Assembly: GCA_008632985.1 (NCBI GenBank)
Contig: QPGO01000059.1
Location: forward strand, 124,001 to 188,000
Reading direction: 5' to 3'
Length of the DNA stretch: 64,000 bases
DNA from: Psammoneis japonica
Lineage: Eukaryota
Positions 1-52,465 of the stretch are shown piece after piece. A program made the position numbers and the translations under genes. Position 1 is the first letter of the stretch; the number at the start of each line of letters is the position of its first letter. Below the pieces are notes generated by a model, which saw only the letters and a program-made list of their open reading frames with translations, searched no databases and was not told the DNA's origin.

Positions 1-997
1 CATCACACACTTCCTTGCAGGAATTGTGTGATGACTTTGATGTCTCTGCAAACAGCAGGGGTTCTTTTGACATGTTGGGGCAATGAAAGCAGTTTTTCTT
101 TCCTTTCTTTGCAATGCCGAACCATGTCAAAGGTGTCAGCAAGTGTCTTCATTTCTGTTGCAGGGAGAGGGGCATGAATGTTTTCTTGCCCTTGTCAAAA
201 AACTCTCCAACTGTCCAGCCATCCAATGGCATCTCATGACTGGCACCGATTCAATGCTGGCAACCAAATCTCCAGATGTGCCAAGGTTCAACAGTGCAGC
301 ACCTCTCCATTTTGACTGCTTCGCTGAGTCACCTGAAAGCTGTTGTCACTTGCACCTGCCAGCATGAGTTTGCACTGTCAGGCAATGGCACCAAGAGCAC
401 AAAGGTGTTTCTGAACCTCACGGCATGCATCACCCCAGCTGCAAATGCTGGTGTCATTTTCACCCCACCTCCTTGGATCATCTTTCAATGAAGACAGTGG
501 CACCAGCTCCATGCTGTGAGAGGCACAATCAGGTTGACACGTGTTTTGCATGTGGTGTTGTGTTTCATCATGACTGTGAGTTGATTGTTGTGCAAAGTGA
601 AAGCAAAAATCAGTGTCTCTTCCAAGCTCCACCATCAAATTTTTTGGAGTGTGATGCATGTCTGGTGCACCATGAGGCTGCTCCTTGTGGGAAGACCTCT
701 TGTGCATCAAAGCAAGAACCAACCATCTTTTGTGCTGAGAAATGTGCAGTGGATGACGCGCGGCACACATGTGGCTGCTCCACTGTTTGAAACTGTTGAA
801 GTGGTTCTTGTTTTGCCAGCCACATTTGCTCCCTTTGTCCATCAGAGCCAATGCCAAGACACCCTCCAACCATGTGTGAGAAGTGGAGCATGTGCACAAA
901 AATGATGCTGGCACAATTTTTTGCACACCCCGCCAGCAAAACATGGCATTGTTTTCACCCCATCATCTCAAAAACGCATGTTGAAAGTTCAACTTCA

Positions 998-1863
998 ACA
1001 AGCAGTGATCTCACCTCCATCATTTTGTGAAAAAAACGTCAAACAATTTGATGGATGGACATGTTTCAATGACCACATCTCCATCACAAACCCCATCATT
1101 CAAACAAACCCTCAGTGCCTTGCCCCCTTTTCATTTGCACTTTCTGTTTTGCAGCAGCTTCCAACTCTTTTTGCTGTTCATGAAAAAAGTTCTCACAAGA
1201 TTGTTCCCAGGAAAAAAAATTGCTGAGTCGAACGGGCCAACTCTCACCTTCTGAGAATTGAGTCTTGAGTCTCTTTTGAGCAGATTAATTTTTGGTGGGT
1301 GCCCCAAGCAACATTTTTCCCACCAAGGTTGCTCAGAGAATTGTTTGATGATCATGGTTAAAATGATGGTCTTCACAAAATTTCAGTTGGAGATTTTCCC
1401 ATCTGATGATGACAATGGATGGTGACACCATCTCCTCATGAAAGCTGTTGGCCATTGAGTCTTGTGACTTTGTCAGTCCATGATGCAGGACACTTGGATG
1501 TGTGGACCAACGAAGCTTCAATTTCCAACTGCAGACAGCCACAAAGCAGACAGCATTGCCATTTTTAGCTTGGAAGCTGTCACAAAATGGGCAGCAAGAT
1601 GAATTTGTTTTGCTCATTGTCCTTGTGGGAAAATGCAATCTGAGCAGAATGACCAACTCTGCGCTGAAGGACTGAGCACAAATTTCTGGAGAAAACAAAA
1701 AGGCAGAGCCAAATTCCTTGCACATGAAAAGGGGGTGAGGTGCTGAGAGGGTTTGTTCAGATGATGACAGGTTTTGCAGTGGAGACACAATCATTGAAAC
1801 ATGTCCATCTGCCAAATCATTGGACAGTTTTTTCCCACAAAATGGAGGTGATCACTGCTTGTG
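998..1863. repeat. Degenerate fold-back element with ~140-bp inverted arms (~998-1140 / ~1720-1863)
   Basis: aagcagtgatc…ggacatgtttcaatga…aacaaaccctc…ccccttttcat is matched in reverse complement at 1720-1863; many mismatches are CA/TG swaps. Confidence 0.75.
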
Positions 1864-2500
1864 TCAAATGGCCTTCATGTTGACAAAAGATGACATCTCA
1901 CAATGTCATGAGACAACATTTTGGGGGGCACCCCCACCACTTTTTTGTTTGCAGCTCCTGCAAAGGTGCAGGAATGGCCCCACAATGTCCCAGCCTTTTC
2001 CCACCTGCAAAAAAGGTTCCTTGAAACCAGCCAATCCACCATGAACGACACTTCAAAGTCCAGTTTTCAGAAATTCGATGAACACTTCATCACAGACACG
2101 CTGCAGCGAACATTTTCCGACAATGGAATTTTGCTGAGTGGTGGACATTGTCATGTTTGTCGTCAAAAAGTGAGCACACAAAGCGCCAATCATCATGACT
2201 GAAATCAATTCCTTGAGGTCGTGGCCTGTTTTTTTGCAAAGCACGATGGGAAAAGCACGAGGACAAAACATTCTACGTGAATTTTACACGTGATTTTTGC
2301 ACCAGAAATTGGCACCCACACCCTGATTTTCAGACTCATGACCCCTGCACATGGCATCGGCAGTTCTTCCGATGAAAGCCCCCTGCTGATGGAAGATTGG
2401 ACCAATCAGAATGCTTCATTTCAAGAGTGCACGTTGCAATGCTCAAGGCTTTCTGAAAGAATGCACATCATCATTGTTTGACGATTTCAGTGACACAGAC

Positions 2501-5500
2501 ATGGCCACCTCAATTGACCCATCTCAGATGGACGTGCCGCAATCTGAGCGGCAGTGCTCGGACAATGACACCTCACAAAAATTTCAAACTCCTCTGGTCT
2601 TTTTTCATCTCACTCATCATCAGTGCTGACGTGCACAAGAGAGTTCTGAGAGAAGGAATTGCAGCAGAATGGAGAAGCACTTTGCCCCCAAGCTTCCTGG
2701 CACCATGGGTGTTCAGTCTCAGGCTCGAAAGCCAGCCACAAAAAAAGCAAAGGAGCAAGCTTTTTCTGGAGTCACCAAGTTGATGAGCAAAAACATGCCT
2801 CGGTTTACAACGTCGCCAGCGGCGATGGCAGAATCGCAAATTCTGACTCTGCCAAACAGAAGCACCACTCAAGAAAAGGTTGTTGAGTGCAAAAGGTGCA
2901 AACAAGGACCCTCCTGCAAAAAGGGTCATGATGCGAGTTGCCCAAAACCCACCCACTGTGGAAAAAACATGAGCACCAAGCAAAGTGCAGCTGTCCACCG
3001 CTTCATCACTGGTGACACAAGAAAGAATGCCAAAAAAATGCAGGGTCATCAGCGTCCAACTGAGGAAGGCATGGAGGATCTTTTTCACTCTCACACCAGG
3101 GCTTCAAAAAACAACAAACCATTGGCAACAGCCGTCTTGTCAAATGCCACCACTGCCAGCACCGTCATGTTGAATGCGAGTGCTGTGGCTGCCACTGCCA
3201 TCAGCACTGTCACGTTGAACAGCACAGAGCGTTCTGCTGATGCATTGAAGAAGATCTTCTTTGTCCATCGGTGCCAAAGAGAGAGATTCGGAAACGAATT
3301 GAGACGTGTGAAAAAAAGAAGATTCCTTGTCCCGCGCCCATTCAGGCTTTGATTTTGCATCTTCTGAACTTGTGTCCATCTCAGTTTCATGCCAACTCAA
3401 ATGAGATCATGGGCGGAGAGGTGAATGCAAAGAAACTCAAGTGGTTTCAGAAGAACTTTCCTTCAAGCACCATGTCATTCACCATGCCTCGGGATGATGT
3501 GTCCATGGCTCCTGATGACCTGTGCGCCGAGATTGAGGGAGTGACCATTCACATCCTCCAACGGGAATTGATTGGCCTTGGCATCTGCTTGCTGTGCATT
3601 GAGGGGTGTGCAGATGGTGAGATGATTCATCAGCAGTTCGACATCAAGAGGGAGCACTCGCCAACTGCAATCTTTGATGCAAGTGGCGCCACTGATTGGG
3701 GAACATCTGTGTGCTGCAGGTGCAACAAATGTGGTTGTAAATGCAGAGGCAACAATGCCAAGCTGCTCAAAAAGCTCCCAAGGCATCCACAACTTTGCCA
3801 TCCTGTGGATCTACGCTGTGCCGATGTCAATCCATCTTTTTGTTTGACGTCACCAATGACCCGATGCATCGACCACTCCACGCAGAAGTGCAGCAACGGT
3901 GATGACATGGCCGCCTTCTTGCATCAACAACGAGGTTGCAAGTTTCTTGATGGAGAAGAGTGGCATTTTTTGCAGTCAATCAACGCTGCTGGTGGGAACT
4001 CAACAACTCCATTGTCAGCACATGAGGACTGGATGGGTCGACATGGACCAACAGGACAAAACATGCGAGACATGTGTGATGCTGCACAAGAGTCAGATCT
4101 CACTGAGACTGGCATCAGCAACAACATTTGGCACACGAGGGAAATTCAATCAGGCGGTTGTCACATCAGTGTTGCGTCTGACCACACTTTTGACCAATTG
4201 AAGAATTGCAAAGACGACAACGGCAAGGGACTCTTCACCATGGCCACAGAGACTGGAGAGATTGGCACAGCTGTAGCAGTGCCGACGTTGGAAACCAAAG
4301 ACTGTGCGCATGCAGCCGAACAGTTTGCGAGGCATCCAAACGCAAAACCTCAAGCCCATTGCTCTGACACTTGGCCAAACAAAGAAGAGTTTTGGAAGCA
4401 AATTTTTGGTCAGGATGTTGTGTGCAGGCTTGGTCTTTGGCACTGGACAAACCGCATCATTCGGACTTTACGAGGTGCTCACATTGATTGTTGTCATGCG
4501 GTTTGTGAATTAAGGATGGATCTACGTGCTGCGGTCTAATTTAAAACAGCTCGCATTTCCCGCACTTCACCGTGTTATTTTGACCTGCCTCGGTACACCC
4601 CCGAACACTTATGCGTTCGTCAAACCCTCATAGGGGCTGTTAGACGGCTATAAGAGCTGCACATTTAGCGCTTCAAATGCCACTTATCGACCTATGCCCT
4701 GTTGTCAGGTCGAAAAAACCGCTAATTTTCGCTAAAATCGGGCTTCTTATGGGAGATTAGCGGTAACTTTCTGGGAAATGGCGATAAGTGACATTTGACT
4801 GGCTATAGACATATCTGCAGTCGTTAAGGTAAAAGTCGCGCATGGTCATACCACCTGTCGTTTAGGCATTCTAGGGTGTCTGGCGAACGGACAAAGTTCG
4901 ACCGATCGCTGAAATTTTTTTTTGCGAACGCGCGCGCATTTACTACGATGCATCCGGGTTATTTTATAAAAATTACGAGCTCCCAAAAAACAGACCGCAG
5001 CACGTAGATCCATCCTTAAAGGATTGCGTGCGGTACAACGATGAATCCGACGAGGCGAAGGTAGTTGATGCTCTTGTCTTTGGGAAGCTTGGTGGGAAGA
5101 AGAACACGAGGGAAGAAATTGAGGATGTCAAGAACAGCAAGAAGTGGAACAACTGCAAGAAGTGCATTCAAAGGTGGGCTTGCCCACTTGAAACAAGGAA
5201 CAAGCATCTGGAATCCTGGTTCGATTGACACAAGTGCTCTGCGTCTCCCGGCGTGGCAGAGGCTGGTGGACAGCATGACCCAGACTCTGGGAAACCGCTT
5301 TTTACGGAAGACACAAAGAAGCCAGTGGCTGAAAACACGCAAAATTGTCGGCTCGTGGACTTGATGAGCCGCTGCCACGTGAAGACTCACACAGAGTTGT
5401 CAAGCCTTCAAAATGGTCCAAGTGCAAGCTCGACATGTTTGTGACAACTGCTGGCATGGAATCAAAGCTTGAAAAGCATCACCATGTCGTCAAGCATTTT

Positions 5501-6339
5501 GGAAACACTGGTTCAAGATCCTCTCTGATGGATGCATTGTGCCTTGCAGGAACGTGTGAGTGCAACTTGTCAATGCGAGAGCATGTCAGAATGGACGAAC
5601 TGATGGCTGACGAGCGCGCCATGATTCCGCATGCCTTTTGAGGCGCACCCACTTTTCTCAACCACAGCAGGCTTGACGTGTCAACAAGCTGGCAGAGAAA
5701 GCAGGAGCCCCCCATCCTGTGCATGGGAACGTCAAAGAACTAAAAGAAGATGATGGTGAGAGGCATTTTTCAGCACACCTGGAGCAATTGGAGCATGTGA
5801 GAGAGCAGCTCAAAATGAGAAGAGCTGCAACCGGCACAGCAGCAGCATCCAAAAAAGATTCTGACAGATGCATGTGCAGCAAGTGTGGCACAAGAAACCT
5901 GCATTCAACCCGTTCTAACCCAACACCAAGTGTGGAGAATCCGTGCAAAAGAAAATCCAAGTCACAGCAACCACCGCCGTCTGAGGAGCCGCATGTGAAA
6001 AAAGTCAAACCTTCCAATTTGCAAGAGCAGGAGGTCGTTCCGACAAGACAGCTGCCGCCAGCGCCAATTGCACCACACCCCGCTCCACACTCCATTCCAT
6101 GTTGCACTCTGATTCAAGTTAATCCCTTTTGGAACAGTGCACCAACAGTTTTGCCGCTGCTGCAGATGCCGCCAAATCTGCAGTCAGATCTGAACCAAAA
6201 ACACTGCTGTTTCCGAGTGAGGGAATTTCATCTTTCAAAAACAAACTTGTTGGGGGCGGCTGCTCAAGGAAGAGTGCCACATGATGAACAGTGTTCATCA
6301 AAGCAGTCTCTGAATGTAGATTTGTCACTTGCCTTGTGA
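2501..6339 (+). pseudogene. Decayed DDE transposase of the CxxH-type group (Mutator/hAT/P/Kolobok-like; superfamily unresolved), interrupted by a MITE
   Basis: ORFs 2669-3352, 3271-4539, 5028-5228, 5345-5641 and 5719-6339 carry motifs SDHTF, ETGEI, SDTWP, RLGLWH…RI and ESKLEKHH…HFGNTG plus Cys/His fingers; almost no Tyr; frameshifts and TGA stops. Confidence 0.7.
4514..5015. mobile_element. 502-bp MITE with perfect 24-bp TIRs and TTAA target-site duplication (Kolobok-like GG…CC termini)
   Basis: TTAA(4510-13)|ggatggatctacgtgctgcggtct … agaccgcagcacgtagatccatcc|TTAA(5016-19); removing it rejoins the transposase in frame (VCEL-KDCVRYND). Confidence 0.93.
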
Positions 6340-6842
6340 TTCTGGCCCACGGCGCACCTCGATTGTGGCGCCAAGATGGAACATGGGAAAAGGGGGGCGA
6401 TGCCGCCTAAATGAAATCAACCTTTTGGCTGATGTCCTCTGTCTTCAATGCCGCGAAGCAAGACGCTGCAACGCATCGCATCTGTCTTGCCCTCACTGAT
6501 GCCATTGCTGCGTTCTTCTCCTCGCTTCCTTCCTTCTCTCTTGTCACAGCAGCAACGGGGTTGCTTCGCTCCCCCTCTCCCCCCCTTTTCTTCTGTCGGC
6601 ACCCCCCCATTTTTGCAGTCAGTCGGCGGCAGGCAGGCAACGCAACGCGGAGTCTTCTGAGCACTGTGCCGTTTCTCACACAGGCACATCGACTGCTGCA
6701 AGCATCTGCAAAGCATGGTGGAACAAACATCTTACAGAGGGACTGGAGATTTTAGGAAGAGAGGGTAAAAAAATCAAGACAGAGTGACAAAAATGTGGAG
6801 GCCAGAGAAGCTAGAAAACAAAGTGCCGCTCGCGAGTGCGTC

Positions 6843-8370
6843 ATGCCTTCCGAGAGCAACAACGAAGAAGGGCAGAGTCTGGCAGCTGTGACGATCCCTC
6901 AGCAGTTTGCATGGACTGGTCTAGCTTGTGATGCAGATGAAGAGAAAATGTCACTTGCTGATGCAGGGTTGAAAACAAGTGATGAGAGCGACATTGTTTG
7001 GTTTGATGACCTCACGCTGTGGAACATTCTCGGCTGTGCTGTTGACGTTGGCCCTGACCATCTCAAGTTACAGTGTGTCTGCAAGCCATGGAAGAGTGTC
7101 GCAGACATTCTCGTTCCCTCTGTCATTCTCAAAATGGCACACCGACTTGAAGACCTGTCTGCCCGTGTTGTTGTTCCTCTGGATCAGAGAGCGTTGCCAT
7201 GGGACGAAGCACTCGCGCTTTGCAAGACTCGCGACAGTGCTCTCTACCGCAGAGTTGGAGAACAAACGAATGCGAAACTTTCACACTGGCCAAAGCTTCA
7301 ACCCCAGTTCAGTGTTGCAATTGTTCGATTCGCGTGCGACACTGCAACTCAGCATCATGGATCTCGAACTCTGCATGCATCGATCCAATCCTTCTTTGCT
7401 GCCCTTGCCGATGAATCGGTGGACAAATTTTGGAAGACAATGGAGAAAACAAAATCAGCAAGAGCTGGGTCCTTTGCAGTGCATTGAGGAGCTCGTCACT
7501 CTTTGGCGAGAATGGACTGGCTTGGCAGAAACCGTAGATGGCTTGGCCGACTGCATCAACTGCTGTTTCTTGAAACAGCAAAGTCTTCCTTCGATCTCTC
7601 AGACAGCTGAACGCGCCCTGGTGCGGTCTTGGCGAGCGTCGCTTAGCAGAATTGGCAGCAAGGACTGCGTTGTTGTGCAAGCTTTCATTACGAGTTGCGG
7701 TAGCAAAAATGTCACTAAAGGATTGGAGGCATTCGAACGTGACATTTTTTTGGAAGCATTGAGTGCTTGTGACAGTCTGCAGAGTTTTGCGCAATCCAGA
7801 GAACTGGACGCTCAGCAGATCCCGGGGGAGTGGTGGGCGTCGGCAGACGAGACTTACTCTTCGATTCAGTCTACATTGTCCCCTCTGTTGAAGGCTTCTC
7901 CTGGAGAGGAGCATTTTAAGGCTGATGACGATGCAAAAGCAGTTCCTGCAAAGCCCATCACCACCCAGTGCCCTGGAGGCCACGGGTATACCATGAATAT
8001 GGACAGCCACTTTTTCAAATCCAGCGGATTTTTGAAACGTCTCAAGCTGCAACCTGGTTATGTGATGAGCCTCCCGATTCAACCTGAAAGGATGGAAATG
8101 GTGCTTCAATTTCACACAATCGATGACATAAGCCCCTTACCGAATATTGAGCCACCATTGGTTGACGAATTAGAAGACACTGTTGGCGAGAGCTACTCGA
8201 GGTTCACATTGGACCTGTCAGAATCTACGATTATGGACCTCATAACAGTTGCAAACTTTTTGGATTGCACGAAGCTTTTTAATCTTTCCTGTGCCGCACT
8301 TGCCCAGGTGGTGTGCAGGAAAACGCCTGAAGAAGTTTACCAAATGTTTTCTCAAGAAGAAGAGGCTTAG
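6843..8370 (+). CDS. F-box-like + cullin N-terminal-repeat-like + Skp1 domain fusion protein (one frameshift near 7435-7450; may be a pseudogene)
   Basis: C-term IMDLITVANFLDCTKLFNLSCAALAQVVCRKTPEEV is Skp1-like; N-term FDDLTLWNILG…LQCVCKPW is F-box-like; middle ELVTLWREW…DCINCCFLKQQSLPSI resembles cullin ELVKRW…YLDRYFI…SLP. Confidence 0.7.
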
Positions 8371-8701
8371 TGGACAAGGATACGCCGGAATTAAAAAAGC
8401 AGGAGTAGGCCGAACTGTTATTTGCAGATCGCTCGTGCACGCTTTGTGTGCACCTGTAATGAATTCAAATCAAGAGGCACAGTTTGAACAGAGGGATGTT
8501 ATTTCTTCTTAGGCAATGATTTTTCTATGAGGCTTTGTCGTCGCATCTACTTCCAAAGTTGAGGACATATCAAACGAAATTTGAAGTTCCTTGTCGCCGG
8601 ATATCGAATCACCCCCATGATCGTTTCGTTTTTAGAGGTCTGCGCCAAAATCTTGAATTGTAGGAGTCACATCCCTCCCCACAGCCAGCCTCATTTCCCA
8701 C

Positions 8702-11518: not shown

Positions 11519-11571
11519 CAAGTGAAAGGATACATACCAGTAAGGAGCAAAGAATATAGAATCGTTTTAAA

Positions 11572-24943: not shown

Positions 24944-25185
24944 ATTACTGTTTAACGCAACGTTGATTCACTCACGAAACTCTCAGTTTGTTTTCCCATA
25001 CAATGGCTCCTTACATCTTATCGCTACATAGTTTGGCGACCCTGAAAAGACGGATTCTACAGTATCATAGTTAGACTACGCTCTCTATTTTTCGAGAACA
25101 CGCCGTGACATCGTATCTATTCGAATAAACGCTCGCAGAACAATTCTATTTAAGGGGTGCTGTGCATCCTCGTAATGTGGATCTT

Positions 25186-28600: not shown

Positions 28601-28701
28601 GGACTTGCCATGGTGTCATTGGTGTGGGTGGATCTGGATGACAATGCCATGGTTGGTGGCATTGACGACAAGCTCTGTGGATTGACCATGCTGGTTGCAT
28701 T

Positions 28702-30560: not shown

Positions 30561-31545
30561 CAGATGAGTCCAAATGTGTCCAACCCATCCTTTCAAAAGG
30601 CAGTTGTTGAGACAGGTGATGATTGGGTGACAATGCAGCCGATGCATCCTTGCGGATCAGAGCAATCTCTGTCGATGGCAACGACGACGTTCCCTTGATG
30701 TGATGGCAGAGCTTCTTTTTGACTTGACGCTGTCGCCTTCCTCTGCGATCAGCACTCTTCCGAACAGCCGACAGGTCCACTCGCCTCATGTTTTCAATGC
30801 CATTGCTGCGGACGTCTGCCAAGGCCTTCTTGTGCAAGGGATGCAGCTTCTTCGGAAGCCGGATCTTTCCACCGCTTTTTGCAGTGATTGTTGATCCTGG
30901 CTTCAAGCTCAACGGTGAGTTTGAAGATTTCATGGTTGTCTTGTTGCATGGAACTGTTGCTGATGATTCGCTTGCCAGCAGCTCCGATTCAATGTCCCCT
31001 TCTGTCTCTTCCATGGTCTCGGTGGCTCCGCTCTCTGCAATGTCCTTTGTCGTTTCCTCCGTTGTTTCCAGAGGTCCGTCTGCTTTAATTTCTTCTGCGG
31101 CTTCATTGGATGCACCATCAGCATCTGGCTCCTCTACAGTGTCAGATCCTGCACTTGATTGACACCCTGAAACAAGAACTTCCATTTCACAATCAGACGG
31201 CTCGATGTCTCCGTCACTCTTCTCAAACTCATCAGCAAGGTTTTCTCCATCATCTGGATTGCCTTTCCCGTCATGGTCAATGACGACACATGCATCACCA
31301 ATGCCACCATCGCTCGTGCCGTTTTCTTTGCTGCCATCCAAGCAAGCCTCGTCGTCCTTGATGCAGTTGGTTTCATCAACAGGTTTCTCACTCTCTTTCT
31401 GCTCCTCTGGCGAAAGCGCTTCAGTTACGGCAGCACCAATGAGATCCGGTTTCGGATCACTGCACTCGTTTTGCTGCTTCTTTGGGTTCTTCAAGTCGGT
31501 GGCAGTTTGTGCGAGAGTGTTCCAGACGGTGCGATCTGTCATCTT

Positions 31546-34500: not shown

Positions 34501-35147
34501 TGCTGCAGTGGCATTTGCCGCTTGACTGCTGAATCTCGTTGAGGATTTGTTCACACAACTCCAGACAGCTCGTGGTGCGAGCTTCCACGACCACGAAATG
34601 CAACTTTGGCACTGTCATGATCTGCAATCGACCTGATGGATGAATTCGCAACCTCTAAAGATGGGTGGTCATTTGGAACCTTGATGAGGACGGGTGTTTT
34701 GACCGGCAGCATCATGATCTCTTCCGCGACCATTCTTCACCATGAAGTGGGGGCTGCTGGGTTGCCACTCCTGTCTTGAGACTCTTGCGTGTCCTTGGTT
34801 TCATTCAACAGATGAGAAGATCTCCTCGGCTTGGTTCTTCCATCTTGCCGTTGCTGTTGATTCCAACGCACGTCAAAATTGTGACGAATCTTTCTCATCA
34901 CAGACGACAGGTTGCTTTTCCCATTGTCTCTCATTTTGCAAAAGGTGTTTGTGAGGGATGTGGCAACAAGAGACACTCCAGTGGCACGAGAAGTCCTGCT
35001 TGACCGCCTTTTCGAGTTCTTCCTTTCCTTCTCACGCTCAGCTGCAGTTGATTCTCTCTTTCGCTTCTGGCGAGCGACTTGCCTTTTGATTTGCTCTTTT
35101 TTAGGCTGGCACTGCTTCTTGTGGCTGCTCTTCTTTGGAGGCATGGT
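31546..35147 (-). pseudogene. Academ-type transposase, fragmented
   Basis: ORFs 34737-35150, 33624-34145, 33581-34087, 33001-33312, 32707-32925 and 31546-32673 with DN / GDLLS / GDLH motifs. Confidence 0.72.
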
Positions 35148-38360: not shown

Positions 38361-38446
38361 CCCACCCTTCAATCGCAAGCTCAACAGCTATAGATACAGG
38401 GTGCTTTGATCACCTTTTGTGAAATGATGACTCCTCTCCTACGTGT

Positions 38447-39273: not shown

Positions 39274-39463
39274 ATTCTCAATCTACAGTATATAATCCGT
39301 CACCTCGAGCTTCTGATTGCGCTTATTATATTGGAACTGTTACAACAGCGTCACAGAAACGCAGACACCGACGACATGAACGGTTGTGTTGTTGCTGCGC
39401 AGTGGGTCGTCGGGGGGGCTTGGGGAGTCAATCAGTCTCAGTTGTTGTCGCCGTCGCTGCAGA

Positions 39464-40434: not shown

Positions 40435-43400
40435 GCTGCAGAAGCGTGGAAAGCACGTAGAGTGTCGTATTGAGCGAGCGCTTACAGTACACGCTTTCAA
40501 CCGAAGGTTCGACTGATTCCACGAATCGCAAATGAATATCTGAATATCCGTTGGAAATTTTCGTATTGCCCCATGAAATATGTAAAGCCTCATGTCTTAA
40601 TATAATCATAAAATGACCTCAGTCATAATCCAACGCACGTCCGGACGGCGTGTTCTCCCTGCTGAAGCGAGCAAACAAAACCGTTCTGTCGAAGTTGATG
40701 TTGTGCCCCCCAGGAGCAGTGACCTTGACACAACTGACCATTGACCATGAAATGGATCTCTAGACGTCCCAGCACTGGGAATGCATCGTTGCCAAACATG
40801 ACGGACGAAGCAAAAGTCAAATGGAAATGGGATCGATGAAGGAGAAGAGCACGCGGGACACGTTGATTGTTTCTTTGTTGAGCGACTTGATGATGACAAG
40901 TTTTGTGAACTTCCACAGTTGATTGCCAACAAGACTTGGGAGCTTGCAAGGATCTTGAGCAATCCAGATGGTCATGAGATGAAGCACCTGGGACTCTGAT
41001 CATGATTTGTGCATGATGCAATGTCGCACCTCAAGGGAAACTGGATCTCCAGATGTGGTGGCGACGGCCATGTTCTCAGCGAAGATCACCACATGTGGAA
41101 AGAAAACATCATTCTCAGGATGGGCACAAGTGGCACGCAACTGGAGTGGGAGCCCGAGCCTCCCCCGCTTGCGCTGGAGCAGGAGGCGGCCTTCACGAGG
41201 AAGCCATCATCAAGACGGCCTGGAATTTCGGTGGGGTGGGATTTGTTCAGGCTGGGAGGTGACCCATTTGATTTCTTGCTGATGAACCACACTTTGGCAA
41301 TGATTGGTGTTCACCATTGCATGTTCAAATCGAAAACACCATGAGGCTTGATGGATTCCAAAGGCTGAAACACGCATGTGCTGAAGATTCGCGCCAATCC
41401 TGCGCAGCACAGTCGGAACACAAGTGCAAGGATGAAGACAGCAAGCTTCAGGACATTGTGTTTGCCATGGCTGACAAGGGATGCAAGGACCAGTCTGGTG
41501 TTTCTGCCATCACAAAGAGTCTTGTCAATTGGGGTGGGAGTGTTGTTGAAGCCTGCGCATGCCACAAGCGGCAGCTGTGATGGCGCTTCGTGCAGTGGCA
41601 TGTGCTGCAGCTTTCAGACATTCTCATTGGCTTGGGAGGCACTGCGGCAACTCACCAGATGCTTGTGGTCATCACCCTTTGCACGCCAGTGCAGCAACAT
41701 GTGACGCATTGGCAATCAAGCACCAGCTCTCGAAAGGAGTGGACAGTTTGGTCAGGAACAACGCCAGTGAGCGAGACGCCCCTTGATTTGCAAAAATCTG
41801 CAGGCAGACGGCAAAAAGATGAAGACGAAATGCGCCAGTGTTGCTTTTTGCAAACTGACGTGGCAGTGTAAAGAGAAAGTGGGACAGAACTGCAGCTGCA
41901 CAATGCCTGGGGGAAGCCTGGTGGGACAGCTCATGTCCACAGGTGTCTCGTCATGATTCTGCTGGCAACAACCCACACATTTCTTGCACCGGTGGTGATG
42001 CAACATTCAGCAGTTGGATTCATTTTTTTGCCATTGTCAACCCTTGATGAAACTGACACTGTTTGCTGCCCTGGTTGTGTCCCTTCGCTGGAGCTGCCAT
42101 GTTTGATGGAGAGTTGCCAAGGTGCAACAGCTCAACTCTCTCTGATCAACTGCGTTCAGTGCAGAATTTGAGGTTGGCAGCTCAGACATGTGGCCGTCAA
42201 GTGACAACAATTCCTTCTCCACATTGACAGTCTACAAAAACTCACAATCTCCACTTGCTCCACTTGCTTGCACAAACCCTCTCCACTGGTCGGGAACATT
42301 TCAATGCTGTCAATTTTTCTTGGTCCACGTGTGGCCATGCATGTGCATGTCAAAGGAGTGTGTTGATTCTTTGGAGTTCTGCAGGTTCCATTGAAATGAT
42401 GGAGCCAGAGCTTCATTGGGTGCCAACTCCAGGCCTGTGATTCGGTCCACCACCACCGTCAAGAGGACAGACTTGATCACATTTGGACATTCCGCGTGGG
42501 GGTGTGCGCAGTCTTCTTCGTCATCGTTGTCCACCTCAATGTCATCGACCACCACAAAGCCATTGAGCGGATGGTGCTGAACACAGTCTGTCCACTGCTG
42601 ACTGGAAATTGATGGCGCAGCCTTTTGCGTGGCTTCCCAAAAGAAATTGTCACCCACGTGAGTCCGGTCTGTGTCGGCACCACCAAAAAAGTCCCACGTC
42701 AGGGCAGCAACATCGGGGACAACCTCTTTGGCAGAGCACTTGAAATGAACCCCAATCTTCAAATTTCTGCAAGCACACTTGATCCATTCTGTGTCCACCA
42801 TGATTGTGACCTTGTCGCATTTTTCTTTTTGATCAAGAATTTGTTTGACTCGCTCCCCTCCAGCACTTGATCCAGAAGTTCTCCTGGTGTGGGCTGTTCT
42901 TGAGATTGCATGTCTTCCCCCAAAGGCATTTCAATGACATTCTCTGCTTCTAAAGATCCTTTGATTTGCTTGTTTTCTCCTCCAAAGCACAGTCCTTTGA
43001 ATTCTGCTAAAAATTCGCAGGCATCCTCATCCTCACCAGTGTCCTCATTGCCTGCTCCTTCTTGCTTCTTCCTCTTCACCGTTCTTGTCCACTGCAGATT
43101 TGTCGCCATTGCCAGTGTCTTCTTCCTCTGGCCTGCCAATTTGCTTCTCCACGTCTCCCATCAATTCCATGTTTTGAATGGATTGAATCACCTCCAAAAG
43201 GACGCTCAGTCGAGGTGATGAGGATGCCATTTTGACATGCAAAGAGCCTTGACAAGCAACGACCACTGATCTCTCTCTTTGTCTCTGTGAACACCCCATG
43301 AAGTCATGGCTTGTTGTCAGCAGCTGAATCTGGACGATCCATGCAAACGAAGTTAGTGTTCTGGAAGGTTGAAAGAAGCTGGAACAACCATCGCAAAAAA

Positions 43401-44154
43401 CAGATGGAGGACAACAAAAACAAAAATGAAAAAATGAGAAAGAGGAAATCGAGGATCTCCTGATGGGGTGACAGACGCACAGTTCAACTTTTGAGTGCAG
43501 CAAGCGGGCGGTCAGATTGCAGCCAAAGCACTGTGAAGATCGCTGAGGCAAGATCGCAAGCTTCCTGTCGATCGATCACCTCACTTCTCTTCATTCTCTC
43601 ATTCACTTTAACTTCACTCTGCAGACTGCAGGCAGTGCACTTTATTTCACTGTTCTTTTTAACTAAAAAAGATGGCAACTTCCAAAAATCAAAACAACAA
43701 GCATCAAGAAGAGAGATCAAGATGAAGCATGTGTCAAGATGGGAGCCTGGGCAGAAGAGGTGACGGTGGGGTCAGGTTGTTCCAACCAAGTGCAATGCAA
43801 TGAATGTTGTTGTAGAGTGTGAATGTCACAACAAACAAGAGTGCAGCTGACACTTTCAGAGCTTTCTTGCTGTTGGAGGAGAGGATCGGCTGGTGCAGAT
43901 TTTGAGCTGTGGTTGATTGGAGACTTGCAAGAGCTGGGCATCTTGCAGACAGTTGAGTTGCAATGTCAGGGCACTGAAACTGCAACATCACAAAGAAGAG
44001 AGCTGATGATGTTTCTCAGCAGCTGCCATTGGGTCGTTGCAGCTCTGCATCAGTGCCTGTGCAGCTGCCCCTTTTGTGAGCGGGGTTGCCACACAAAGCT
44101 CACCTTGGGTGTGTGCCAGCATGAGGCAGTTGCACCACAATGACAAAGACACTG

Positions 44155-44517
44155 AGGGTTGAAGGGGGATGCTTTGTCATGCCTGTGTTTGGAAGGTTTG
44201 TGCCACCATGGTTTTGAATCTCTTTGCACTTTTGTCCCAGATTGCAGCACACTCTCTGTGCAAAATTCCAAATGATTTTTGGCTCCTTTTGTGCCAGCCT
44301 TTCAGCACAAATTTCAAGTGCAACTTCACACAGGGTTGAAGGGGAATGTTTTGTCATGCCTGCATTCAGAGGGTTTGCGCCACATCATGGTTTTGGATCT
44401 CTTCACACTTTTGTCCCAGATTGCAGTGCACACTCTCTCTGTGCAAAATTCCAAATGGATGTTTGGCTCCTTTTGCGCCAGCCTTTCAGCACAAATTTCA
44501 AGTGCAACTCCACACAT
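44155..44517. repeat. Direct tandem duplication, ~177-bp unit x2
   Basis: agggttgaagggg…ttttgtcccagattgcag…cagcacaaatttcaagtgcaact at 44155 and 44332. Confidence 0.9.
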
Positions 44518-47379
44518 TTGGACAGATTTTCAAGATTTTGATGATCAGATTTTATGGTCCTGCCCTTCTTGCCAACTTTTTCATTCTGCCTGAGTTTTCT
44601 CGAAGCTGGCCTTCAACTCTCGAAGGACATCACCTGGCCCCAAAGTGGGGCCTGGGGCAATGGGATTCCTGCACACAGTGGCATTTTCTCCCAACCACAG
44701 TCTTCCCCCATGTTGGACTTTCTTGGATCTTTTGCCCCTTGACTCTTTCATCCTTTCAAGCACTTTGATTTTCTTGGAGACAGCCACATGATGTTTGGTT
44801 TTCTCCCTGCAGTGTTTGTTTTTGTGGCTTCCACATGGTGTGTGTGGCTGGGCTTGTCTGCTCTTTGAAGCACAGCAACCGCGTTTGCCGTGCATCAAGT
44901 GCCTGTTTTGGTGTCATCACAACTTCCCGTTGAAACTGTGGCATGTGACATGCGCTCTTGTTTCATGACAGGCAGTGTGTCAATGCTTGAATTGTCCCTG
45001 TCGTCCCCTTCTTTTGGGTGCTGGGGAACATGGGTCTGCTGTGGTCAGTGTTGGCATGGGTGGCAGCAAGACAGCAGCACATGCAGCTGAACTCCAATTT
45101 TGTTGTTGGGCTGCTGTGGATGATGTCCACAAACAATTGATGTCATGCCATCATCATTTGTGCTGCAGCACTCTGCCAATGAAGTCTGTCATGTCTTCAT
45201 TGGTGCTGTGTGTCCACTCAAAGGTGAGAGCCAATTTTGATCCAAACTTTTGCCTCTCTCACATGGATGGGGTGATGGGGGGGGGGGGGGGCAGGTTTGT
45301 TCAACCAGCACCTGCAACAAATCATTTTGCTGCCAAAAGGTCATTTTAATGCACACTTGGACAAGGGCAGCTGTTTTGTCTCATTGAGCAACAGCCATTT
45401 GAAAACCATGTTGAAGGCTCCCAAGCTGTTCGTGATGACAACAACTTGGATCTCCTCCCCCACTCACAACATCCTCTCATGTGTGCCTGCATCTGACAAT
45501 GTGGGGCTTTCTTGGTTTGATCCAGCACAATTCAAAATCACTGCAGCAGCAGCCTGGGTCATCAAGGCCTCTTCCAGCTCCAGGTGTCCCACACAGGTGC
45601 GTTTTTGCATTTGACCCAATGAATTTTTCTTCAGCTTCAATTGTTTCCCAAATCAAAGGGTGGGTGCACATGAAACTTTTGTTTGTTTGTGTGCACTCAC
45701 CTCTCCATTTTCAAAACAATCAAAACTGAAAAGTTCATTGTGCCAAACGCAATTTTCATCTGGCATCTTCTTGCGTGATGGATCATGGATCACCTGGAGC
45801 TGGAACAGGCCCCAAGGGCTTGAGTGACACAAATCATCAAGAAGTTTTGCTTGCTGCAAGAACTCCCAGCTTTTGGGTTTTGTTTCACCGGAAGGTTGGT
45901 GGCAGACAGAGTGGATGAACAGAGAGTGCTGTGCATGCTTTTGCAACCAGCAGAGTGCATTTTTCATGATCCTCAACACCCTGGCACTTTCCAGATCTGC
46001 AGCTGTTGTCAATGGCAAATGCAGCCAAAGGAGAGAAATGACAGAAATGATGAGCATGGCATGAAAGCTGCACGCGGTGCAGAATGTTTGGGGTCCCACA
46101 CAACAAACGCTGGTTGTGAGCATGTGACTCAATTTGTTCTGTTGCAAACACTTGTCCATTGCAGCACATTTCTTGACATTGGGGCCAAAAAACATTTTGT
46201 GCTTCAAGTGCAAACTGAGTGCAAAACACAGGCAAGTGCCTCCAGAGGCTGTGGGAATGGGCCGGCTCAACAGAAGATTCTTTCCTTCACCTTGCTTGGC
46301 CATTGTTTGGGAGGGACAAATTGTGGCATGGTGAGTGTCCCCAACACCTGCTGGACATCTGGAAAATGCAGCTGCTCTTGTTTCGAGCTGAAAATTGTTT
46401 GATGAGAAGCCTGTGTTCTTGTCAAGTGCTCCTTCATTGCAAACAAATGGCTTTTTGTGACAAACTGAGTTTGGGAGAAGTGGGGAACCAGACTCAAGGA
46501 AATTTGGTCTCACAGCACATGCACTCTTGACAAGATGATTTTTGTGCATGCTCACAATGCATCATTGCAAATTTCTGTGTGTTCACAGTCAACTGAGTTG
46601 GCTGAGCAGGAAACAACAATGAACGAAACATGGTTCATTTTTGTGCACACACATGCACACTCAAGTCACTCTTGTCAATTGTTGTTGATCATTGGCTGGA
46701 GAGCATGGTGCTGACAGTTTGATTTGTTCATTTGTCAGCTGGCGTGCACTTTGCAACTCTGGACTCTGATGATGTTTGCTTTCTGCCATGGCAATGTTTG
46801 ACATTTGACACGTGCTCTTGTCCCATGCTGTCACTCTGTTGCCTTTGCTCTCTCTGTTCTTTTGGCCACTGTTCCGCTGTCTTTCACAGTCTGTCTCATG
46901 CCTTGGTGTTCTTGACAGTGCTTTCATTTTGCCATGTTCGAATCTTTTGCATGTTTCAAAGAGGGTCAATTTTTGTGGCAGCTTTTCATTGTGACACATG
47001 ATGGCAGAAGACAGCAGAGAAGTTGTCAGTGTTTGGCATGTTTTGTTCAGCAAGCGTGGCAAAATGCTGCTGTTTCTGCTTGCCTGTGTGCAACACTGCA
47101 GCACTTTGTTTCTCATCCTTGGCTGTTTTGCTTTCTTGTCAAATTGTCTGAGTTTCAAGAAATGAAGAAACAGCAAAAGCATCAGCTTGCATCTGACCTT
47201 TTGCCTTTCCTGTGGCTTTTCTTTGTTTGTGTGCAAAGTTTCCTGAGTCTTGTTGGTGCCTTTCTGCAATGCCATCATTGCTTGTGTGTGGCTTGGATGC
47301 ATCCTGTGTTTTTGCATTGTTTTGTGTGACAGCTGCGTGCCCTTCTTGCCACAAAGCCAAGCCAGTCATCAGCCTGGTG

Positions 47380-49590
47380 ACACCATTGCTTTTGTCATTT
47401 TGCAAGTGGCAGCAACCTGATGGGCACCAGTGGTCTTTGATGAACCCCAGGGGACACTTTGCAAGGTTGATCTTGCAGTGTTGTGGCCCCATGTCACATT
47501 GTCCCTGACAGGAGCAGACTTGAATTTCCAAGCTCCTCCTCTGCCAGAGTGAAATGACCCCACAACAGTGCCAGACCCCATGTGAGACTTGCTTTGCAAA
47601 CTTTGGTTGAGCATTGCAAGGTTGATCTTGTGGCATTGTGGCCCCATCATGTCACCTTGTCCCCAACAGCCACAGAGCAAAATTTCCCAACTCCAGAATG
47701 CAAGTGCCCCATGATGGCAACAAGAACCAACCTGACAGCTGCAAGCTGAGGGCACTGACAGTGTCTGGTGGGCTCCAGGTGAGATGTCAAGAACTTTGGC
47801 TTGGAATTGCAAGCTTGATCTTGTGGTGTTGTCACCCCATGTTGCCTTGTCCCTGGCTGGAGCACACTTGAGTTTCCAAACTCCAGAGTGAGAAGATCCC
47901 ATGACAGCACCAACCAACTTGACAACAAAAGCTGATGGCATTGATGGCTTCCAACAGCCCAAGTGATGCAGTTCTCAGAGCATCACCCCTGGGGTCCACC
48001 AAATGCTGCCAGTGTTCTTGGCTTGCTGTTGTCAGGTCAGCTGGCAGAGGAGGAGCTTGGAAACTCTCAAGTCTGTCTCCTGGGACAAGAAAGTGACATG
48101 GGCCAGCACAAGACCACAAGACCAACCTTGCAACAATCAACCACAGCTCTTGAAGTGTTGCCTGAGGTCCCCCAGACACCACCAGTGTCCTCAGCATGCT
48201 GTTGTCAGGTTGGTTGTCACTGTCATGGGTTTTCTTTCACTCTGGAGTTTGGAAATTCAAGTTTGCACCAATCAAAGGCAAGATGACATGGGGCCACAAC
48301 ACCACAAGATCAACCTTGCAATGCTCAACCACAATTCTCAATGTGTTCCCTGGGGTTCATCAGAAACCACCTTTGCCATCAACTGGCTGTTGCCAGGTTG
48401 GTTGGCACCATCATGGGATCCTTTGACTCTGGAGTTGGGAGCTGCAAGAAGTCTGCTGCTCTTGGGGAGTGACAAGATGAGGATGCATGGTGCCACAACA
48501 CCACAACATCTGCCTTTCAATGCCCAGCCACAGCTCTCAAAGTGTTGCCTGGAGAGACCACCAATGCCGCTGGCTTCCTGTTGTTAAGTTGATTGGGTGC
48601 TGTCATGGGGTCCTTTCACTCTGGAATTTGGAAATTCATGTCTGCTCTCCTTGTCAGGGACAAGGCAACATGGGGCCACAATGCTCAAGATCAAGCTTGC
48701 AATGCTCAGTTGCACCTCTCAAAGTCTCACCTGAGGTCCAACAGATGCCGCCAGTGTCCTCAGTTTGCTGTTGATAGATTGGCTGACAATGTCATGGGGT
48801 CATTTCACTCTGGAGATTCGAAACTCAAGTTTGCTCCCATCAGGGGCAAGATGACATGGTGCCACAACAACACAAGATCTGCCTCACAATGCTCAGTGGC
48901 TGTGCAGTTCTCAAAGTGTCCCCAGGGGTTCATCAGAGAACAACATCCTCAGCTCGCTTTTGTCAGGTTGGTTGGCACCATCATGGAGACCTCTGGCTCT
49001 GGAGTCAGGAGTTTCAAGTCTGCTGCTGTTGGGGACAAGACAACATGGGGCCACAATGCCACAAAATCAACCTTGAAATGCTCATCTTGTGGCATTGTGA
49101 CCCCATCATGCCACATTGTCCCCAACAGCTGCAGACTGAAATTTGCCAACTCCTGACTCCACATGATGGCACCAACCAAGAACCTGACAAGAGTGCAAGA
49201 ATCCCACACATGATGGCACCAACCAACCTGACAACTGCAAACTGAGGGCACTGGCAATGTCTGGCAGACCCCAGGTGAGATTTCAAGAACTGTGGCTGAG
49301 TGTTGCAAGGTTGATCTTTTGGCATTGTGATCAAATGGTGTCAACTTGTGCCCAACAGCAGCCAGACTTGAGTTGCCAATCCCAGATTGAAAGGATCCTG
49401 TGATCTGTGATGACACACCAACCAACCTGACAGCAGCAAGCCAAGGGTGTTGGCAGTCTCCAGTGGTCCCTGGGCAACACTCTTCAGAAATTGTGGCTTG
49501 ATGCTGTGGCATTGTGGCTCCATGGACTTGATTTCCCCATTCCAACAAAGCACAAGGACCCCATGATGGCACCAACCAACCCAACATCAC
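47380..49590. repeat. Diverged ~190-bp satellite, ~12 units in three blocks of alternating orientation
   Basis: gggccacaa…ccacaagatcaaccttgcaatgc forward at ~48100, 48290, 48490, 48672, 48860, 49047; reverse at ~47460, 47615, 47810, 49085, 49305, 49500. Confidence 0.85.
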
Positions 49591-50339
49591 AGTTGTTGCA
49601 TGATTGGAACGTGTGCTTCTTGTTGGCCTGGAGAATTAAAGATTTTTTGGCAGCTTGCTTGTGTGGCACAGCAGAATGACAAGACACCAGACACCACACA
49701 GCAGGATGCAATGATGTTGTGCTGGCACAAACAAGGCATGGTGCATGTGCAATGGGACAAGGTGGTGGCTTGTTCAAAGGTTTGATTGCTGGGTGGCAGC
49801 AAGCAAGCAAAACTTCAAAAAGCAACTCATTGGGAATGCCAGAGATGTGGAGTTGTTTTGCAGTGCAAAATGGCTTGAGGAGAATGGAAAATTGCTGGCA
49901 GCACTTTTGAAACAGGTTTCTCTTTGTTGAATGTGCAGGCCACCCTCCATTTTCCCCAATCTAAATTCCAAGCAAGAGCAGATCCATTGTGAGGGCTGGC
50001 CAGGGCCCAAGTCAGAAACATGAAATGTGCTTCATCGGTTGCATGCCGCACCATTTTGGAGGCTTGGCACATCGTCAAGCTTTCTTGCCTTGAGTTTCTG
50101 AGTGAGTCTTCATGGCCAATCTTGCCAACAGTGAAAGCCTCAACATCAAATGAGTTTTCCATTGCCAAAACCTTGGCCGCAGCTGCTGCTCACACAGTCT
50201 CTGGATCCTGGAGCTGGGTGCACAGAGAGAACACTCATGTTTCTCTCTGACGAGCAAATGCTGGGGGCTGGCACTTTGACCAGTGTGTCATCTGAGTGAC
50301 CCTCTGAAATTTTCTGCAAGAGACAAAACCAGTGCATTT

Positions 50340-50896
50340 GACGTGTTCCAGCCGCACGTGAACCAAATCGTGCACATAAACGACATTTGCGCGATTTTTG
50401 CGCGGTCCCTAACTTACGATCGAACTTTCACCACCAAAAGTATAGATTTATACAAATATAAATGTTTTGCAACACTAACAAGACTCGTGTGAGTGTTGCA
50501 ATATCATTGTTATTGTGATATCTATGTTTTTCATTGCGTTAAAAGATTCGTAACACAACGGATGATTTTCGGCGAAAATATTGCCGTTATTTGGATGTTA
50601 CCTAAATATATCTTTCTACGATGCTACATGGTAGGTTTTCTACCTACAAAGAAATCTCAGTATAAATCTACTGACGTACAATCAGTATTGAGACTACTGA
50701 GGAAGTTTATGATACATATCCCATGAGGACTTGAATACCCCACAAAAAACTATTTAAATGTCCATACTCTCAATGCCTATAAAAGCCAATCCGCTTAAGT
50801 ATTTTTTATATGAAAATGCTACATACACTAAAAGATACATAATTTATATTCAAAATCGATTGTCGTTTTGTGCGTCACCTGGGACTGGAACACGTC
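50340..50896. mobile_element. 557-bp AT-rich MITE-like insertion with short TIRs and probable 4-bp TSD ATTT
   Basis: attt|gacgtgttccag…gcacataaacgaca … tgtcgttttgtgc…ctggaacacgtc|attt; abrupt change to TpA-rich composition inside. Confidence 0.75.
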
Positions 50897-52465
50897 ATTT
50901 GTAGAGCAACAAGGAAGAGCCACACAGACACAGTGGGGGCACAACTTTGCATCCACCAGCAGCAATCTGCTGCCACAGCAAAACTGGAGCACAGTGTGCA
51001 AGCACTGTCCAAAACAAAAACAAAAACAAATCACAACCATGTTGGCCCCAATGTCCTGGCACCCCAAAAAGCATCCTTGGCACACTTGCTGTTTCATGAA
51101 AATGACATTGGCTGAATGAAGCAAAGATTGACCCGCACACTGCAGCCTGGGTTGATGTCAGAATTTTTTTGTCAATTTGTGCTGTGATGCAAAGCTGAGT
51201 CAGTTGATGAGCATCTGTGGCAACAGAAAGCATGAATGATGACAGGGATTGAATGACAATGTGGCAGTTGCTGGGGCTGCTTGACATTGTGAGTTGGGGT
51301 CTGGAACATGAGCTCTTGACATTGGGCTGAAAGAAAGGAATCAGGTTTGTGGTTGCATCATTTGTAAAAAGGGGGTTGACTTGATGAGGAGTTCATTTTG
51401 AAAAGAGAGTCTTTTTGTTGTTGTCAGACATGTGATGACAACACAGTGGCTTGTGACAGGGGTGCACCGTTGTTGCGCAAAAACAACAGATGATGGGCGG
51501 CTGAGCTGTGTGGTGCCTGAGATGCAACAAAGAGACAAAAAAAGCAGCAGAAACAAACAAAAAACATGCAATGGTCAATCAAACTAAAGCTCTTCCAAAC
51601 AAACAGACCAACTCTGAACAAGATGCTGTGCCACAAAACAAAACATTGCAAGTTTGTGACTGCTGGAAAAATTGGGTTTCAACCTGAATGACAGTCATGT
51701 TGACAATGCCAGATTTGTGGCTGAAAATGAGCCAGTGTCAAAACATCATTTAGAATCTAAATGACATCAACTGCCTTGGTTGATTTTTGAGAAAATGTCG
51801 CACCTCTGTGGAGAGTGCAGCCACACACACAAAACACTTGTTTTTTTGCTCGTTGACCTTTTTTTAGCACAAAAACACATTGCAGCAGACGGACTGCTCA
51901 TTGCCTCCCATGTCTCTTTTTATGTTGTTCAAAGTTGCAGGTGAGTTGAAAACCAAGCCATTTGCATGCAAACCATGAGAACTCCACCATGGATCAGGAA
52001 AACACCACACTTTTTCGAGTCAATTTGAAAAAGGTCAGAGAGAAGGTGCAGGGCACACTTTTTGGCAATGCCACTGCCGCAAAAAACAGCTGTGTCAACA
52101 TGAGTGCTCTCAATGTTGCTTCACACAGTCCCAGTAAAACAGAACATGGTGCAGTGAACAATGTGTGCGGCAGTTTGAGACGACGCGGAAGACGTCAGGG
52201 CGGGTCAAGGCGAAACAACGCTGTTTTGGGTGGCGCCTGCACTTTAGTTGGCACGACTGCGTAGTGCTCCACGATTCCTCCACCCCAGGAGCGCGCGCCT
52301 CCGTCCACGTGGAGATGATGATGAGACAGCTCACAAAATTCCAAAAATGCGTGGCCTTGGCTCGCGGCCATCTCATTTTTCATCAAACCGCCATTCGATC
52401 GCCTCTCTAGAAGCCTCTTTTTTCCCATTGACGCTTGCCACATCAGCTTCTTATCATATTTCACC

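Follow-up and report, generated by a model that had tools for sequence, protein, structure and literature searches.

A 64,000-nucleotide stretch of the genome of Psammoneis japonica (contig QPGO01000059.1, positions 124,001 to 188,000; hereafter the window, numbered from its first base) contains four blocks of repeat-like DNA, designated A to D, from which the dinucleotide 5'-TA-3' (TpA) has almost disappeared. The depletion is real and far beyond chance, as six block segments totalling 26,809 bases retain 78 TpA steps where the density of host DNA would predict about 1,046. Comparison of the encoded proteins with their relatives makes it very probable that the mutation is genuine and that its direction was TA to TG or CA. 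The best explanation overall, which is given a probability of roughly 0.55, is that inserted mobile or foreign DNA has been subjected to a TpA-specific hypermutation by the host, probably through adenine deamination. The original prediction, made from the letters of the sequence, had proposed such an erasure of TpA aimed at transposons.

The window was scanned for observed-to-expected (obs/exp) dinucleotide ratios in 1-kb bins, and the block edges were then set from the positions of individual TA steps. The TpA ratio per bin was 0.00–0.14 in the blocks and 0.38–0.78 in most other DNA. The low bins (about 1–7000, 26001–35000, 41001–50000, and 51001–52000) had a TG+CA ratio of 1.4–1.95, and TG and CA ratios by block were 1.4–2.0 against 1.15–1.21 in host DNA. 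Very few of the 1,557 TpA steps of the window lie inside the blocks, and the longest run without TA, 3,238 bases (45347–48585), is in block C. The six segments are 1–4468 (A1) and 5063–7535 of block A, 25755–33273 (B1) and 33603–35102 of block B, 40761–50376 (block C), and 50903–52135 (block D); the host density was taken from 34,203 bases of host DNA in the window with a TA ratio of 0.58. The edges fall between positions 7535 and 7644, 25628 and 25755, 35102 and 35183, 40626 and 40761, and 52135 and 52245, and are therefore sharp to within about 130 bases. The predicted near-absence of TpA was confirmed, down to the 17 steps claimed for block C, and the sharp edges agree with a process confined to inserted, repeat-like DNA. 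The predicted layout stood only in part. The depleted blocks exist, but block A ends near 7535 and not at 6800 and holds a TA-normal miniature inverted-repeat transposable element (MITE) of 510 bp, block B includes a nested element that partly bears TA, and blocks C and D are split by a TA-rich insert. Block D may be a continuation of block C. The features are collected in Table 1. An open frame of 465 amino acids (6973–8367) spans the right edge of block A, with a TA-poor first part and a TA-normal remainder.

Table 1. Positions of the TpA-erased blocks, their open reading frames (ORFs), and nested elements; dinucleotide values are obs/exp ratios
Feature	Position	Strand	Remarks
Block A, left part, TpA-erased	1..4468		TA 0.03, CpG 0.36, TG 1.76, CA 1.71
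Conserved ORF of block A, 432 amino acids, cut by MITE	3241..4536	+	Unclassified family, no Pfam match
MITE-like insert, 510 bp, in block A ORF	4510..5019		Perfect 28-bp terminal inverted repeats, flanked on each side by TTAA
Block A, right part, TpA-erased	5063..7535		TA 0.09, CpG 0.61; right edge between 7535 and 7644
Block B, TpA-erased element	25755..35102		TA 0.04–0.07, CpG 0.65–0.69
Superfamily 2 (SF2; RecQ-like) helicase part, 593 amino acids	28705..30483	-	Relatives P0001, P0002, P0003
N-terminal part of helicase protein	30487..31545	-	Matches P0001 residues 94–440, E 4e-50
ORF, DUF6589-like	31549..32706	-	287 relatives; 9 of 12 scanned relatives match Pfam DUF6589
Nested high-copy element, 396 bp, in block B	33226..33621		Imperfect 28-bp terminal repeats; TA 0.32, TG 1.73
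Block C, most extreme block	40761..50376		17 TpA in 9,616 bases, CpG 0.23
Array of ~189-bp units, direct and inverted, in block C	47459..49466		From unit comparison
Unmutated high-copy insert separating blocks C and D	50377..50902		TA 0.93, GC 34%
Block D, TpA-erased	50903..52135		TA 0.06, CpG 0.15

The direction of the change was read from three genes. Each stop-to-stop ORF of at least 150 amino acids lying wholly within the blocks has 0 or 1 tyrosine (Tyr). The 593-residue helicase of block B had been described as Tyr-free, with Cys or His where Tyr would be expected, and this proved correct. It has 0 Tyr against 16 in its relative P0001 (59% identical), 13 in P0002 (55%), and 22 in P0003 (32%), and in the 9 columns where both P0001 and P0002 have Tyr it has Cys in 5, His in 3, and Phe in 1, so that Cys or His occupies 8 of the 9. 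Other frequent replacements in the helicase were V to A (6), K to E (4), I to T (3), I to M (2), and S to G (2), which are the changes that GTA to GCA, T|AAR to T|GAR, ATA to ACA or ATG, and T|AGY to T|GGY would yield (R, purine; Y, pyrimidine). Replacements of R by H, C, and Q were also found and are a mark of CpG decay. The DUF6589-like ORF has 1 Tyr in 386 amino acids against 3.1–4.2% Tyr in four relatives, and opposite 12 Tyr of relative P0125 it has four His, one Cys, two Phe, two Leu, one Ser, one Arg, and one Tyr. The block A ORF has 0 Tyr in 432 amino acids against 2.5–5.3% in its relatives P0275, P0276, and P0277, and of the 12 columns in which its two closest relatives share Tyr, five have Cys, three His, and four Phe in the window. 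Since Tyr of the relatives has given way to Cys or His in all three genes, which belong to two blocks, the direction is TA to TG/CA, as predicted, and the ancestral element sequences carried TA where the window copies carry TG or CA. Relatives of the three genes are not equally Tyr-free; their Tyr content is 2.5–5.3%.

These comparisons also bear on a native composition, in which the elements would avoid TA by selection, for example against transposons or nucleases that target TA or TTAA. Long open frames do persist in the blocks, in all six frames, as this explanation would have it, but they are expected anyway, since TGA is the sole stop codon possible in DNA devoid of TA. In addition, the genes are broken: conserved Tyr has become Cys or His in three of them, and in-frame TGA stands at two Arg positions. 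Relatives elsewhere have normal Tyr. A metagenome scan for helicase relatives gave 4 distant loci (26–37% identity), all with normal TpA ratios of 0.51–0.71. Selection against TA is therefore considered highly improbable.

The process strikes either strand of the self-complementary TA, as indicated by near-equal TG and CA counts in the six segments (454/512, 233/233, 730/738, 136/147, 1103/1036, and 142/145), which bears out the predicted both-strand action. Changes of Tyr to Cys and of Tyr to His are likewise both present, in numbers of 5 and 3 for both the helicase and the block A ORF. Apart from the TG/CA excess, dinucleotides other than TA and CpG stay near host values in the blocks, and A to G and T to C changes thus appear restricted to TpA, as judged from end states and not from observed mutation events. 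With host ratios taken as the starting composition, which assumes host-like ancestral DNA, missing TA plus missing CG comes close to the excess of TG+CA in each of the blocks compared and together they account for it, with 172+164 against 308 in A1, 242+156 against 365 in B1, 348+455 against 725 in block C, and 49+53 against 109 in block D. The CpG ratio varies between blocks (0.69 in B1, 0.23 in C, and 0.15 in D), whereas TpA loss is saturated everywhere (0.03–0.09), and this combination points to two separate processes. The earlier argument that decay of 5-methylcytosine (5mC) is not by itself sufficient is supported by block B, where CpG remains at 0.65–0.69 while TpA is at 0.04–0.07.

An untargeted regional bias, in which error-prone replication or repair of heterochromatic methylated repeats would erode TpA without any dedicated defence, could draw on the CpG decay of the blocks, as methylated DNA would show it; the original prediction had named error-prone repair as one option. 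Against it stand an all-or-none TA ratio (0.03–0.09 in the blocks and at least 0.45 outside), edges sharp to about 130 bases, TA-normal inserts inside blocks, and saturated TpA loss in block B where CpG loss is mild. The B. natans preprint further reports, for the chlorarachniophyte Bigelowiella natans, a rate raised 1000-fold and a process that is on only in some lines (bioRxiv 10.64898/2026.01.13.699255). Such a bias is quite unlikely.

The surviving TA sites are not random with respect to their neighbours (chi-square 76.7, 9 degrees of freedom, p 7e-13). Observed survivors against those expected at host density were 0/74.5 for ATAT, 1/168.5 for ATAC, 1/83.1 for GTAC, 3/120.7 for ATAG, 7/138 for ATAA, 13/151.3 for CTAC, 15/141.1 for GTAA, 6/47 for CTAG, 19/72.1 for CTAA, and 13/50.2 for TTAA. 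A two-strand model gave exposures by 3' neighbour of 2.7 for T, 1.8 for C, 0.9 for G, and 0.6 for A. TAY was erased 2–5 times more fully than TAR; read for thymine, the same bias is one of RTA over YTA. U-A-C is the setting of the natural target of TadA/ADAT enzymes in the anticodon loop, and the TAY bias would be compatible with a target setting of this type, for which such an enzyme is a candidate agent. An analysis of the fate of each xTAy site (TG or CA outcome) followed the TAY over TAR rule in 4 of 6 asymmetric classes; it depended on the baseline and was not used.

Inserts nested in the blocks suggest an order of events. The region of the MITE in block A (4469–5062) has a normal TpA ratio of 0.9, and the MITE is unmutated, so that it apparently either inserted after the erasure or was not subject to it. 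Its TTAA flanks are a piggyBac-type target, and TTAA is also the TA context that survives erasure best. The nested element of block B belongs to an extremely abundant family, with a summed word depth of 35,000–100,000 in sequencing run X1 against about 30–50 for single-copy DNA. The window has CA at position 33310, a site where T, and with it TA, accounts for about 95% of the family depth; for 33321 and 33324 T accounts for 45% and 37%. The insert that separates block C from block D is likewise a highly abundant repeat (summed word depth about 16,000 in X1). Judged from few sites, the finding within saturated blocks of one insert that is young and untouched, and of another that is older and partly hit, suggests that integrated DNA was hit and that there was no simple spread over a chromatin domain. 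It also argues for a process that would be episodic or specific to certain families.

Three sequencing runs (X1, X2, and X3) from one sample of one study, with no platform on record, yielded contigs that were placed on positions 32000–51999. X1 contigs of 974 bases (40490–41463), 1,417 bases (41465–42881), 492 bases, and 779 bases (50868–51646) match the TA-free sequence with 0 differences. The first of these bridges the left edge of block C and the last bridges the edge of block D. Word depth (31-letter words) was 30–39 in the block contigs of X1 and 45–53 in host contigs. X2 covers 9 of 30 bins, each of them in the host DNA that separates block B from block C, and X3 covers 2; gaps were not used as evidence. 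No RNA runs holding window sequence were found in the run search. Exact and deep contigs of this kind suggest accurate reads, and an artefact of sequencing or base calling, caused by a modified base in the silenced repeats, becomes very unlikely. The unrecorded platform, and the possibility that the runs are the assembly's own data, leave such an artefact some room, but contigs at depth 30–39 that are exact over up to 1,417 bases would be rare from error-prone long reads. Each site is also cleanly TG or CA with no rise of CG, the blocks carry ordinary CpG decay and Arg-to-stop changes, and the same signature is reported from Illumina reads in the B. natans preprint (bioRxiv 10.64898/2026.01.13.699255).

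The X1 contigs also give information on copies elsewhere in the genome. Of 5,336 contigs placed, 809 matched at 99% or more, 1,266 at 95–99%, 2,133 at 90–95%, and 1,128 below 90%, and the many contigs below 99% indicate that diverged relatives of parts of the stretch are abundant in the run. Among the 40 of 971 differences listed, 4 were TG/CA double differences, 12 had TG or CA in the window and CG in the copy, 4 had CA or TG in the window and TA in the copy, and 1 had TA in the window and CA in the copy. Most of the contig differences are transitions, each transversion type numbering 25–38. The share of CA/TG exchanges among adjacent double differences was 104/277 in the family of ~189-bp units (47400–49500; overlapping high-scoring segment pairs), 3/3 in a 184-bp tandem repeat (44155–44516), and 3/4 in block A, against 6/86 and 0/18 in host repeats. 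Such discordance between units would fit independent resolution of an ancestral TA into TG or CA.

The description of all four blocks as derived from transposable elements could be upheld for block B, which has the DUF6589-family ORF and the SF2 helicase. In block A only an unclassified conserved ORF was found, and for blocks C and D the label has behind it a summed contig depth raised over portions of both, with no recognisable protein of a transposable element. Summed contig depth in the right half of block C is 5–40 times single-copy, the left 2.6 kb being at single-copy depth, and it is raised over part of block D as well. The structure prediction for the block A ORF family was poor (mean pLDDT 37.8); a profile comparison did not link it to the DUF6589-like family (probability 0.1%) or to any PDB chain (best E 0.3). 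Pfam was run on 21 block ORFs and subsequently on 128, and the only matches were weak ones to helicases, in block B. Exact look-ups of 10 ORFs gave no match, a block C ORF had no relatives in the viral contigs scanned, and a search of the window against Rfam came back empty. At 40600–52200 and 1–7500 both strands carry numerous overlapping ORFs with lengths of 90 to 300 amino acids or more.

The coding part of block B, from 32706 to 28705 on the reverse strand, is a single frame interrupted by two TGA codons (31546–31548 and 30484–30486). Both align with Arg in P0001, as expected of CGA changed to TGA. A DUF6589 domain and an SF2/RecQ-like helicase in one frame would fit a helicase-bearing DNA transposon. 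The original prediction had spoken of an AcademH-like element, a label that would call for a transposase encoded together with the helicase; the ORF found beside the helicase in block B is of the DUF6589 family. Terminal inverted repeats with a target-site duplication were not recovered for this label, as an edge-to-edge search of B, C, and C+D gave nothing convincing (the best inverted match in B was 19 bases, gapped); heavy mutation may hide the repeats. The helicase family had no relatives in the viral contigs scanned.

Several points weigh against hypermutation of inserted mobile or foreign DNA. X1 may be the assembly's own source and comes from a single sample, so that it is not independent confirmation. 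Differences between contigs and window run both ways (A to G 200, T to C 194, C to T 163, and G to A 152), and erasure may have preceded or followed transposition. The context test uses host TA contexts in place of the unknown ancestral ones, and, chiefly in CpG-poor block C, the CA/TG test has a confounder in ancestral CpG, whose deamination on one strand or the other yields the same pattern. The Pfam searches of block ORFs found no recognisable transposon or viral protein in blocks A, C, and D. The repeats here look to be of DNA-transposon type or are unclassified, with no viral relatives found in the scans, whereas the live-mutating targets of B. natans are viral. Viral origin may not be defining, since the B. 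natans preprint also reports transposon domains in TpA-poor coding sequences. Finally, the 40 of 971 differences listed reveal no copy of the block families that is intact and still bears TA.

This last result would also fit editing before integration, in which double-stranded RNA reverse-transcribed back into DNA, or extrachromosomal DNA, would be edited and TA-free copies would then insert. Sharp, element-wide edges would be expected of it too. The 128 block ORFs of at least 90 amino acids, on the other hand, include none that matches a reverse transcriptase or integrase Pfam family at E of 0.1 or less, and block B has genes of a DNA element. Action in place is favoured by the element at 33226–33621, which has been partly mutated away from the majority sequence of its family. 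The base preferred on the 3' side is a pyrimidine, and ADAR prefers G in that position. Integrated DNA of B. natans is moreover reported to mutate in place (bioRxiv 10.64898/2026.01.13.699255), and editing before integration is regarded as improbable.

Under TpA-specific hypermutation of integrated DNA, mobile or foreign DNA would insert into a pennate-diatom genome, and after insertion each TA would be turned into TG or CA by an A-to-G change on the top or the bottom strand, leaving in the end about 7% of TA steps. Decay of CpG to TpG or CpA would run alongside as a second, slower process. Because a change of TA to TG or CA never makes a stop in any frame, genes would stay open and be inactivated by missense changes, with loss of every Tyr together with ATA-Ile, GTA-Val, and similar codons. 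The activity would be aimed at particular elements and would not spread along the chromosome, would come in episodes, and would prefer TAY sites. The most likely chemistry is that a candidate TadA/ADAT2-like enzyme acting on DNA deaminates adenine within 5'-TA-3' to give hypoxanthine; given a host-directed process of the B. natans type, the deaminase step is an even call.

The main rival to adenine deamination is thymine oxidation at TpA, and sequence alone cannot separate the two. A TET/JBP-type dioxygenase would make 5-hydroxymethyluracil (5hmU) or 5-formyluracil in 5'-TA-3', and mispairing with G or faulty repair would change T to C. Its products at the palindromic TA are identical, so that every sequence result fits equally. 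TC, in contrast, shows no wholesale loss (obs/exp 0.76–1.19 in the blocks against 1.13 in host DNA), and 5hmU is not known from diatoms. In dinoflagellates, 5hmU has been reported to mark transposable elements and to replace T preferentially in TA and TC (PMC11572971), but a later base-resolution map of Breviolum reports no sequence preference (PMC11071213). Thymine oxidation is accordingly held to be unlikely.

The host context was predicted to be that of a diatom, and a gene at 10412–11515 agrees with this. It encodes a LarC-family nickel-insertion protein (Pfam Ni_insertion, E 2.6e-64) and lies in a diatom nuclear context, and its named relatives are only pennate diatoms (Cylindrotheca, Fistulifera, Epithemia, Nitzschia, and Pseudo-nitzschia; 45–66% identity). 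TA-normal host DNA also contains a tandem array of ~457-bp units (36083–38343; units 72–75% identical) that overlaps ORFs and is possibly a repetitive protein-coding gene.

A saturated scar in a diatom suggests that the process is not restricted to one species, and TpA hypermutation may be a general route of genome defence in a major group of marine primary producers. A TpA ratio near zero together with high CpA+TpG would serve as a simple genome-wide marker of past invasions, and it explains Tyr-free ORFs that are likely to mislead gene callers into spurious proteins. The bias of TAY over TAR is a biochemical fingerprint for judging candidate enzymes, and a natural TpA-specific DNA adenine editor would, if true, interest base-editing work. 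It is tentatively proposed, at somewhat less than even odds, that a defence by TpA-reading DNA hypermutation, probably with a TAY-preferring adenine deaminase, is common to diatoms and chlorarachniophytes, is old and widespread in the SAR group (stramenopiles, alveolates, and Rhizaria), and inactivates DNA transposons and integrated viruses by missense changes in bursts that spare later insertions.

Among known systems, fungal repeat-induced point mutation (RIP) resembles the present case in its dinucleotide-specific transitions on both strands of repeated or mobile DNA and in the compositional scar it leaves. RIP changes C to T at CpA, raises TpA, and makes stops, whereas the change here is A:T to G:C, removes TpA, and never makes stops. 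RIP itself was rejected as a candidate, the direction being opposite, with TpA erased and CpA/TpG enriched. Decay of 5mC in methylated transposons is present as a second signature (CpG 0.15–0.69; R to C, H, or Q; Arg to TGA), but it cannot remove TpA, and its extent varies by block while TpA loss is saturated. APOBEC3/AID and ADAR are similar as deaminases that make context-dependent, clustered transitions against selfish nucleic acids. Unlike the process seen here, APOBEC changes C to U and ADAR acts on double-stranded RNA and needs reverse transcription into DNA; the 3' neighbour preference also differs. ADAR-type hyperediting fixed by retrotransposition was rejected, as no element carrying reverse transcriptase was found among the 128 block ORFs. 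Dinoflagellate 5hmU is likewise a base modification aimed at transposable elements, with the older report of a TA/TC preference (PMC11572971), but it is an epigenetic mark and is not known to be mutagenic.

The closest system is that of B. natans. Mettrop et al. have reported from Illumina sequencing of mutation-accumulation lines that 231 of 302 nuclear point mutations lay in an integrated nucleocytoplasmic large DNA virus (NCLDV) and a virophage, and that 230 of these 231 were A to G or T to C, all 230 at TpA (bioRxiv 10.64898/2026.01.13.699255). Only 11 of 15 lines showed TpA mutations, and the rate was raised 1000-fold. The preprint also describes 324 TpA-poor coding sequences enriched in DDE and reverse transcriptase domains and 124 TpA-poor, CpA+TpG-rich clusters in the genome, likens the process to RIP, and proposes an ADAT2-like DNA deaminase. 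A term search of its text, with the supplements outside the search, gave 0 mentions of diatoms, stramenopiles, trinucleotide context, or a TAY over TAR bias, and no report of TpA hypermutation in a diatom was found in a literature search. The expectation of a pathway undescribed in diatoms was therefore upheld for diatoms, while TpA-only hypermutation of foreign DNA had been described in B. natans in 2026; what is new here is the TpA-erasure scar in a diatom and the TAY over TAR bias. The two cases differ in that B. natans belongs to the Rhizaria and the present host is a stramenopile, that erasure is saturated here (TA obs/exp 0.03–0.09) against a Rho of 0.45 in the B. natans NCLDV insert, and that end states are read from sequence here whereas the B. 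natans mutations were seen in real time. They agree, as far as the preprint describes its case, in that only TpA is hit, that TpG and CpA arise by strand, that the changes are confined to inserted foreign or mobile DNA, and that the pattern suggests an activity which is not constitutive. Overall, the window does not present a categorically new 'reverse RIP'; its signature is likely that of the host-directed process known from B. natans, in saturated form.

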